Shown: in pieces, positions 15,604 to 17,022 of the stretch
How the letters are laid out: every line of letters begins with the position of its first letter
How positions within the stretch are numbered: position 1 is the first letter of the stretch
Sequence record: PQ666541
Origin: Shigella phage sb3
Length of the DNA: 64,000 nucleotides
Strand: one strand, 5' to 3'
Made by a program: the position numbers and the translations under genes
The notes under the pieces: model-generated
Seen by the model: the letters and a program-made list of their open reading frames with translations, nothing else
Told to the model about the DNA's origin: nothing
Database searches by the model: none

Positions 15604-17022
15604 TTATGGATAGGTATAGATGATACCAGTTTCTAAAGCAGTTTTATGAATGATGTATCCATTGCGTGATTCTTGAACATCAACTTCTGGATAGTCTTTC
15701 ATCATCTTCTGAAGAGTGTAACGATGCAGGTAGTATTTACTATCTGGATCTTCAGTTTTCCAATCTTTACCTTCTTCGGTCATTTTTTGGATTTCATCCA
15801 TAACCCACCAACCGCACCAGATATAAGCTGAAGTACGATGTGGAAGAGGATGAACATAAGGCAATTCACCTTCTGGTTCCGGAGCAACTTTATCAGTTAC
15901 CTGAACTTGACCAGTCGCTTTAACTGTTTTACTATCATAGTCAGTTGCTGTAACGACAGCAGTAACTTCAATAGTTTGACTTCCAACAGATGAGGTATCG
16001 ACAGTATATACATTAGTTGACCCTTCTACTGGAGAAGAATCTTTCTTCCATGAATACGCAATTTGCGCTTCTTCTGGAGCATCAGTAACATTAGCCGTAA
16101 ATGTAGCTGAAGCATCTTGCTGAACGTTAATAGAAGGAGGAGTCAATGTAACCTGTGGATTCATTGTCTTCTTATTAACTGTTAATGATACTTCATTAGA
16201 AGTAACTTCCTTTTCATTGTAATTTTCTGCAGTTACTTGCGCTACACACTTAACTGTTTTAGCTCCAACTGTGGTAGGAGTATAGTTAAATGTAGTAGTA
16301 GTTTCTCCATCGACCAGAGAACCGTCAACATACCACTGATACGTAGCAGACGCTCCTGGTGGCTGTGAAGCCAAGGTAGCAGTAAATTGAACTGGGGTTC
16401 CAATAACTCCTGCTGGAGGATTAGCAGGAGTTACGGCTAACGTAGTTGTCTGTGTTTTCTTATTAACAGTCAGTGACACTTCATTAGAAGTAACTTCTTT
16501 TGTATCATAATCAGTCGCGGTTACTTGAGCTACACACTTGATTTTTTTAACTCCGCTTGTAGTAGGAGTGTAATTGAATGTAGCAGAAGTTGCTTCGCTT
16601 ACAGGAGAACCGTCAACGTGCCATTGATACGTGGCAGTTGCGCCTGATGGTTGAGAAGCTAAAGCAGCAGTAAATTCAACAGGAGTTCCAATTACTCCAG
16701 CTGGAGGACTAGCAGGAGTTACTGCTAAGGTAGTTGTCTGCGTCTTCTTATTAACTGTGATAGTTGTAGTAGCTTCTGCCGTTTCAGCATCAGTATCTGG
16801 AATTGTATTTGTTGCAACTACTTTAATAGTCTTTTGACCGGCAGGTCCTTTTAGTACATAACTAAAAGTTGCTTCAGTTCCATCTTGTGGAACATCGTCT
16901 ACAGTCCAAGCATAGGTAATAGTTCCACCTCCAGTTTCACCACTGGGTGTAGCAGTAAACTGCTGAGTCTGATCAATAACTCCAGTAGGTGTTTTAGGAG
17001 TTATATCAACTGTAAAAGCCAT
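15604..17022 (-). CDS. hoc: Hoc outer-capsid decoration protein, variant with an extra Ig-like domain
   Basis: 472 aa; N-terminus ..FTVDITPKTPTGVID.. and C-terminus ..YIIHKTALETGIIYTYP as remembered for T4 Hoc; contains two tandem 96 aa units. Confidence 0.9.
   Translation of the reverse strand: MAFTVDITPKTPTGVIDQTQQFTATPSGETGGGTITYAWTVDDVPQDGTEATFSYVLKGPAGQKTIKVVATNTIPDTDAETAEATTTITVNKKTQTTTLAVTPASPPAGVIGTPVEFTAALASQPSGATATYQWHVDGSPVSEATSATFNYTPTTSGVKKIKCVAQVTATDYDTKEVTSNEVSLTVNKKTQTTTLAVTPANPPAGVIGTPVQFTATLASQPPGASATYQWYVDGSLVDGETTTTFNYTPTTVGAKTVKCVAQVTAENYNEKEVTSNEVSLTVNKKTMNPQVTLTPPSINVQQDASATFTANVTDAPEEAQIAYSWKKDSSPVEGSTNVYTVDTSSVGSQTIEVTAVVTATDYDSKTVKATGQVQVTDKVAPEPEGELPYVHPLPHRTSAYIWCGWWVMDEIQKMTEEGKDWKTEDPDSKYYLHRYTLQKMMKDYPEVDVQESRNGYIIHKTALETGIIYTYP
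16177..16752 (-). repeat. Tandem duplication (2 x 288 bp) encoding an Ig-like domain inside hoc
   Basis: Hoc residues 91-186 and 187-282 are about 80 percent identical, each starting NKKTQTTTLAVTPA and ending EVTSNEVSLTV. Confidence 0.85.

Follow-up and report, generated by a model that had tools for sequence, protein, structure and literature searches.

The hoc locus and the domain layout of its product

The stretch of DNA analyzed here, hereafter the window, is 64 kb long and belongs to a Tequatrovirus (T4-like) phage. Positions 15604-17022 of its minus strand carry an ORF for a 472-aa protein, identified as Hoc (highly immunogenic outer capsid protein) by phmmer, Pfam, and database matches; the stop codon is at 15604-15606 of the same strand. 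Directly upstream lies inh (inhibitor of prohead protease; 17032-17712, minus strand), and downstream a small DUF2774-type, 24.3-like gene (15287-15502, minus strand), both recognized as ORFs in conserved synteny. Annotations of UGKSEcP1, T4, EP01, and PNJ-9 name the gene at the inh position "minor head protein inhibitor of protease", and the gene 3′ of hoc appears in relatives as a DUF2774 domain protein or 24.3. This placement of hoc between inh and 24.3 is shared by the window and the T4, UGKSEcP1, sb4, EP01, and PNJ-9 loci.

The window gene matches 678 phage records annotated as Hoc. At the protein level, phmmer aligned its product with T4 Hoc (PDB 5vf3_Z, 376 aa; E = 4e-211) in two pieces that pair residues 1-190 with T4 residues 1-190 and residues 272-472 with T4 residues 176-376. 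The window protein therefore exceeds T4 Hoc by precisely 96 aa, which make up one more copy of the second Ig-like domain (D2) of T4. The second of these pieces scored 405 bits at near-identity and includes the capsid-binding domain, which is invariant in 26 aligned homologs. Specifically, the architecture is D1 - D2alpha - D2gamma - D3 - capsid-binding domain, all encoded on the minus strand. D1 (aa 1-90; 16753-17022) aligns with T4 Hoc 1-90. It is followed by repeat unit 1 (aa 91-186; 16465-16752), a D2 Ig-like domain of alpha type with the central loop patch GSPVSEATSA, and by repeat unit 2 (aa 187-282; 16177-16464), a D2 Ig-like domain of gamma type with the patch GSLVDGETTT. [quoted passage not shown]

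Pfam matches along the N-terminal 378 residues are PKD (4e-10), BiPBP_C, Ig_3, and I-set, with Ig_3 and I-set located at 289-374; every N-terminal domain is covered by a PKD or Ig match. An AlphaFold2 model computed with 26 homologs predicts four beta-sandwich domains at aa 1-90, 91-186, 187-282, and 283-378 with pLDDT of ∼90 (83-93 in D1, ∼90 in D3), followed by a helical C-terminal domain of lower confidence. The top PDB structural matches found with Foldseek are chains of four Ig domains; these are generic multi-Ig matches with low TM-scores owing to interdomain geometry, and they support "four Ig domains" and nothing more specific.

A preliminary description of this DNA had reported a 472-aa Hoc with two consecutive 96-residue units about 80% identical, both ending in EVTSNEVSLTV, within 16177-16752, had given T4 Hoc as a 376-aa protein with a single such unit, and had deduced a five-domain Hoc. 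The ORF, the unit comparison given below, the alignment with PDB 5vf3_Z (376 aa and one unit for T4 Hoc, rather than two units and ∼472 aa), and the model with four beta domains plus the capsid-binding domain all agree with that account. The duplicated Ig-like domain that it described is likewise real, with the correction that T4 Hoc itself contains three Ig-like domains (D1 to D3), of which only D2 is duplicated here.

One in-frame tandem repeat made of diverged copies

Two independent repeat finders, TRF included, detected one 288-nt tandem direct repeat within hoc (16165-16452 and 16453-16740; 80% identity, 0% indels, 2.1 copies, TRF score of 767). It is the sole large tandem repeat in the 64-kb window, where all other TRF scores are ≤59. 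Short tandem repeats with periods of 9, 15, and 21 nt and TRF scores of 50 to 59 occur at 9017-9073, 10409-10449, and 42458-42497; one example is GATGATGAG, which consists of acidic codons.

In the protein, the two units stand head to tail and in frame (aa 91-186, nt 16752-16465; aa 187-282, nt 16464-16177). Both open with NKKTQTTTLAVTPA and close with EVTSNEVSLTV, and they are 79% identical at either level, with 76 of 96 residues and 228 of 288 nt in common (60 nt positions differ). The longest perfectly identical run between them is 20 nt. Synonymous divergence is high and amino acid change is low (pS = 0.48, dS = 0.77, dN = 0.12, dN/dS = 0.16), a pattern indicating that both copies have long been kept as functional, folded domains by purifying selection. 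The duplication is ancient, neither new nor peculiar to the window phage.

[quoted passage not shown]

A search of a 5.8-billion-protein database retrieved 890 clusters of homologs at E ≤ 1e-20. In the best 120 of these 890 clusters, representatives of 376 aa (78), 472 aa (29), and 568 aa (7) outline a ladder with 96-aa steps, from which a few deviate by 1 to 4 residues. The unit start motif KTQTTTLAVTP occurs at position 92, or also at 188 and 284, according to length. A 567-aa protein (P0044) has three-unit length, 54% identity to the window Hoc, and a single KTQTTTLAVTP motif; its sequence apparently places it in a separate lineage of long Hoc. Four-unit arrays (∼664 aa) were absent from the top-scoring homologs, where extra units raise the score.

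The ladder is also seen in DNA. In a sample of 60 records evenly spaced out of 680 matching phage records, the ∼1450-nt span of one-unit loci was found in 27 (T4, T2, RB33, and RB68 among them), the ∼1740-nt span of two-unit loci such as that of the window in about 21 to 23, and the ∼2030-nt span of three-unit loci in 2 (EC101 and UGKSEcP1). In this 60-record sample, about 40% of the T4-like GenBank genomes thus have the two-unit form. Another two sampled records, EP01 and PNJ-9, have spans of ∼1150-1170 nt and encode a 283-aa Hoc (479-1330 in both loci) of layout D1 - alpha unit - CTD, from which D3 is removed in register (...SLTVN|DKVAQEPEG). The PNJ-9 protein has been published as a "variant Hoc lacking Domain 3" (PMC11853027); this short form is thus present in a Tequatrovirus (EP01) as well as in the Mosigvirus PNJ-9. 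Two longer spans were dismissed as candidates for longer arrays. That of Shigella phage KNP5 (2392 nt) contains a run of N across the repeat region (∼700-1700 of the locus) in an UNVERIFIED record, and that of Escherichia phage BYEP02 (1893 nt) results from a ∼77-nt duplication plus a frameshift in the CTD (∼1800-2051 of the locus), probably a sequencing error, which breaks the C-terminal domain into two ORFs.

Three unit types occur in a fixed order

Units were typed by their central loop patch as alpha (GSPVSEATSA), beta (DSQVGGETNS), or gamma (GSLVDGETTT). The typed set comprised 120 proteins, namely, the best 120 clusters minus the divergent P0044 plus the window protein; together with seven DNA loci, it is the base of the typing and not a full census. 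Among one-unit proteins of this set, 32 carry alpha, 38 beta, and 11 gamma. Two-unit proteins are mostly alpha-beta (22), with alpha-gamma (4, the window among them), alpha-hybrid (3), alpha-alpha (1), and beta-gamma (1) as the rarer architectures. The three-unit architectures are alpha-beta-gamma (4), alpha-hybrid-gamma (2), and alpha-beta-hybrid (2). In essentially all 39 multi-unit representatives, alpha comes first and gamma last.

At the DNA level, units group by type rather than by phage. Nucleotide identity within a type is 96.5 to 99.3% for gamma (four phages), 82 to 92% for alpha, and 89.6% for beta (T4 unit versus UGKSEcP1 unit 2), whereas it is 76 to 83% between types. Window unit 2 shares 99.3% of its nucleotides with unit 2 of sb4, 97.9% with the lone unit of Ec_MI-02, and 96.5% with UGKSEcP1 unit 3. 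For window unit 1, identity is 86 to 89% to the units at the first position in UGKSEcP1 and sb4 and to the one unit present in PNJ-9 (88.9%). Synonymous divergence between types (dS of 0.55 to 1.16) exceeds the values obtained for D1, D3, and the CTD when the window is compared with T4 or even with Mosigvirus PNJ-9 (0.04 to 0.39), with dates derived from dS being approximate owing to pervasive mosaic recombination.

Recombination has reshuffled hoc within and between units

Most differences between units fall into three variable patches at unit positions 11-14, 45-54, and 77-83 (Hoc aa 104-107, 137-147, and 169-174), all of them loops in the AlphaFold2 model. Units combine their N-terminal, central, and C-terminal patches in many ways, which implies that recombination inside units is frequent. 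The patches are discrete, recombined, and common to different phages, and a diversity-generating retroelement was set aside as a putative source of this variation.

A change in copy number could be followed in one pair of metagenomic sequences. The 376-aa protein P0099 (Logan SRR28073263, L009 8-1138) was compared with the two-unit protein P0010 (ENA ERZ27280679, L010 301-1719). The P0099 gene runs in a P0010-like unit 1 register up to nt 345 and in the unit 2 register from nt 353; this single switch accounts for 99 of 101 informative sites, and identity in the flanks is 99.6% and 97.9%. Such a chimera is what the deletion of one unit by unequal, in-register homologous recombination should produce, and it shows that domains are lost in nature through recombination between units. 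The P0099 deletion is the one case in which the sequences make the direction of change, gain or loss, evident.

Whole domains have been exchanged as well. D1 and unit 2 of the window are nearly identical to those of sb4 (dS of 0.01 and 0.03), but the two genes clearly differ in unit 1, D3, and the CTD (dS of 0.37, 0.27, and 0.21), the window CTD being closest to that of UGKSEcP1 (dS of 0.04). As read from these values, window hoc is a domain-level mosaic. The gene is at most 94.5% identical at the nucleotide level to any record (the best being sb4), while the 14 kb around it (window positions 10000-24000) are ∼97% identical to the Tequatrovirus phages pSs-1, ECP2301, and ime09. Therefore, hoc is among the more variable genes of the region and forms a local peak of diversity.

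Possible contribution of the extra domain to Hoc function

T4 Hoc is a 180-Å fiber displayed in 155 copies, with one monomer at the center of each gp23 hexamer, and is dispensable for infection; its homologs contain 1 to 10 Ig-like domains (PMC10385173). Three such domains are already present in T4 Hoc (PMC10385173, PMC11150434). Hoc domains bind mucin fucose, with key sites that vary between phages (PMC11853027, PMC11150434, PMC9271167). The critical mucin site is in D1 of PNJ-6 (PMC11150434) and in D3 of evolved T4 (D246N; PMC9271167), and the binding site of PNJ-9 is S183-L184-T185 in domain 2 (PMC11853027). This last motif corresponds to the conserved SLT of EVTSNEVSLTV and occurs twice in the window Hoc, at residues 183-185 and 279-281.

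The extra domain would lengthen the ∼180-Å fiber by about one Ig domain, i.e., by about a quarter, and may provide another module, with a surface of its own, for weak glycan or mucin adhesion. It would probably also alter the antigenic surface of the fiber.

Alternatively, the extra domain could be a neutral spacer, a mere length polymorphism that leaves adhesion, dispersion, and antigenicity unchanged. Under laboratory conditions, T4 is known to do without Hoc, and one-, two-, and three-unit forms coexist in very similar phages (the flanks of the window hoc and of the one-unit Ec_MI-02 are 97% identical). Isolated domain 2 of PNJ-6 did not bind MUC2 (PMC11150434), and an adhesive role of D2 units is therefore not general. 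We nevertheless regard a neutral spacer as unlikely: purifying selection acts on both units (dN/dS of 0.16), their differences cluster in loops, as expected of interacting surfaces, and the PNJ-9 binding site lies in domain 2 (PMC11853027), as a motif that the window Hoc carries twice.

An adaptive reading of the whole cassette set is a speculative proposal that we put forward with considerable doubt. The alpha, beta, and gamma D2 cassettes might constitute a maintained modular polymorphism, with balancing or niche-specific selection acting on three anciently diverged Ig modules that have distinct loop surfaces, keep their order, and recombine. If so, the cassette set would be kept by selection on fiber length, on glycan specificity, or on evasion of anti-Hoc antibodies, recombination would give rise to the subsets alpha, beta, gamma, alpha-beta, alpha-gamma, and alpha-beta-gamma, and multi-unit arrays would be partly shielded from deletion by the strong synonymous divergence of their units.

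Origin of the two-unit array

The reading that we favor, with a probability of about 85%, is that window hoc is a four-Ig, five-domain variant in which D2alpha and D2gamma are old paralogs belonging to a cassette series, whose copy number is changed by recombination. The two 288-nt repeats would then be long-separated paralogs, each encoding an Ig-like domain 2, and would belong to a three-member series of fixed order, of which T4-like phages carry differing subsets, yielding proteins of 376, 472, or 568 aa. Copy number would shift by in-register homologous recombination, either inside units or at the conserved termini of these (NKKTQTTTLAVTP ... EVTSNEVSLTV), probably mostly during mixed infections, and domains may also be exchanged singly between phages.

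An alternative reverses this history: single-unit hoc alleles that had already diverged would have been joined into an array when co-infecting phages recombined unequally at the short linker homology TVNKKT. The existence of pure alpha, beta, and gamma single-unit genes (32, 38, and 11 cluster representatives) and the clear domain-level mosaicism of T4-like hoc genes are compatible with stacking. What makes it quite improbable is the alpha > beta > gamma order seen in essentially all 39 multi-unit representatives, because independent stacking should yield reversed orders too; moreover, the sole demonstrated event, that of P0099, is a deletion. The fixed order argues instead for one ancient array that later underwent losses and exchanges.

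A recent tandem duplication specific to the lineage of the window phage, which would make its five-domain Hoc a novelty, was rejected as exceedingly improbable on the grounds of unit orthology across phages and synonymous divergence between the copies. In favor of such an event, the repeat keeps the reading frame exactly, its copies stand head to tail, and no indels separate them; against it, the copies have diverged at nearly half of their synonymous sites (pS = 0.48, dS = 0.77). Furthermore, each copy is closer to its ortholog in other phages than to its neighbor (for unit 2, 99.3% identity to sb4 unit 2 against 79% to unit 1), and the same 1419-nt gene is present in hundreds of database genomes. 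A repeat misassembly inflating hoc is scarcely conceivable: although repeats are a classic source of assembly errors and two relatives are faulty at this very gene (the KNP5 run of N and the BYEP02 duplication with frameshift described above), reads map uniquely to copies that differ at 60 of 288 positions, the ORF is intact, and many independently sequenced phages and metagenomes have the same architecture.

Two further suggestions of the preliminary description need correction. That the array might be peculiar to this phage, as it implied, is contradicted by the two-unit form in ∼40% of the sampled T4-like records and by the 568-aa and 283-aa forms besides. Its proposal that the repeats drive domain gain and loss by recombination holds at the population level, where the P0099 chimera exemplifies loss, but "hotspot" overstates the case for the window genome, because the copies are 79% identical with a longest identical run of 20 nt and thus offer a poor substrate for homologous recombination inside one genome. 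Efficient recombination in T4 needs roughly 50 bp of homology, according to classical work, and a high rate of intragenomic deletion is therefore unlikely.

Comparison with known Hoc proteins

Variable numbers of Ig domains in Hoc are already published, and the alpha/beta/gamma cassette pattern is a modest descriptive addition. The literature searched gave nothing specific on a 288-bp or 472-aa variant or on a Hoc domain duplication, only general statements on variable Ig number. Likewise, neither the ladder of 376, 472, and 568 aa nor the ordering of the alpha, beta, and gamma cassettes nor the crossover chimera turned up in the searchable literature, an earlier mention in older Hoc papers being possible. 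Hoc serves as the phage display and vaccine scaffold of T4 and is the best-studied case of phage adherence to mucus via Ig-like domains. Natural T4-like phages provide one, two, or three interchangeable D2 modules, which are lost by in-register recombination. This variation could be useful for selecting or building therapeutic phages that differ in mucus retention, for reading anti-Hoc immunity, and for designing Hoc fusions with different reach; for the window phage itself, it changes little.

With T4 Hoc (376 aa; PDB 5vf3, 8t1x), the window protein shares the position between inh and 24.3, the layout as a fiber of strung Ig domains, and near-identical D1, D3, and capsid-binding domains. It differs in having alpha and gamma units where T4 has a single beta-type unit, i.e., one D2-type domain more. 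The 472-aa Hoc proteins of Shigella phages sb4 and pSs-1 and of Escherichia phages HP3, ime09, Killian, and U115 are identical to it in length and architecture. Their genes are 92 to 94.5% identical to the window gene over all 1419 nt in one alignment piece and show allelic differences only, with unit 1 and D3 of the window exchanged for other alleles relative to sb4. Window hoc is an ordinary allele of a common length variant that databases already annotate, within a known protein family.

The three-unit, 568-aa Hoc of Escherichia phages UGKSEcP1, UGKSEcP2, and EC101 contains the same unit family in the same order; the window units correspond to its first and third, the middle unit (beta type or hybrid) being missing from the window. 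At the short end, the 283-aa Hoc of PNJ-9 (PMC11853027) and EP01 shares D1, an alpha-type D2, and the capsid-binding domain with the window protein but has a single D2 unit and no D3, and its existence shows that in-register domain loss is tolerated. The structure of the N-terminal domains has been described for RB49 Hoc, and the Hoc homolog of Serratia phage Muldoon reaches 1174 aa with 10 Ig domains (PMC10385173). Long Hoc proteins of the Muldoon type, likened here to the window protein by description, follow the same principle of a C-terminal capsid anchor with an Ig string of variable length, but belong to distant phages and carry much longer arrays.
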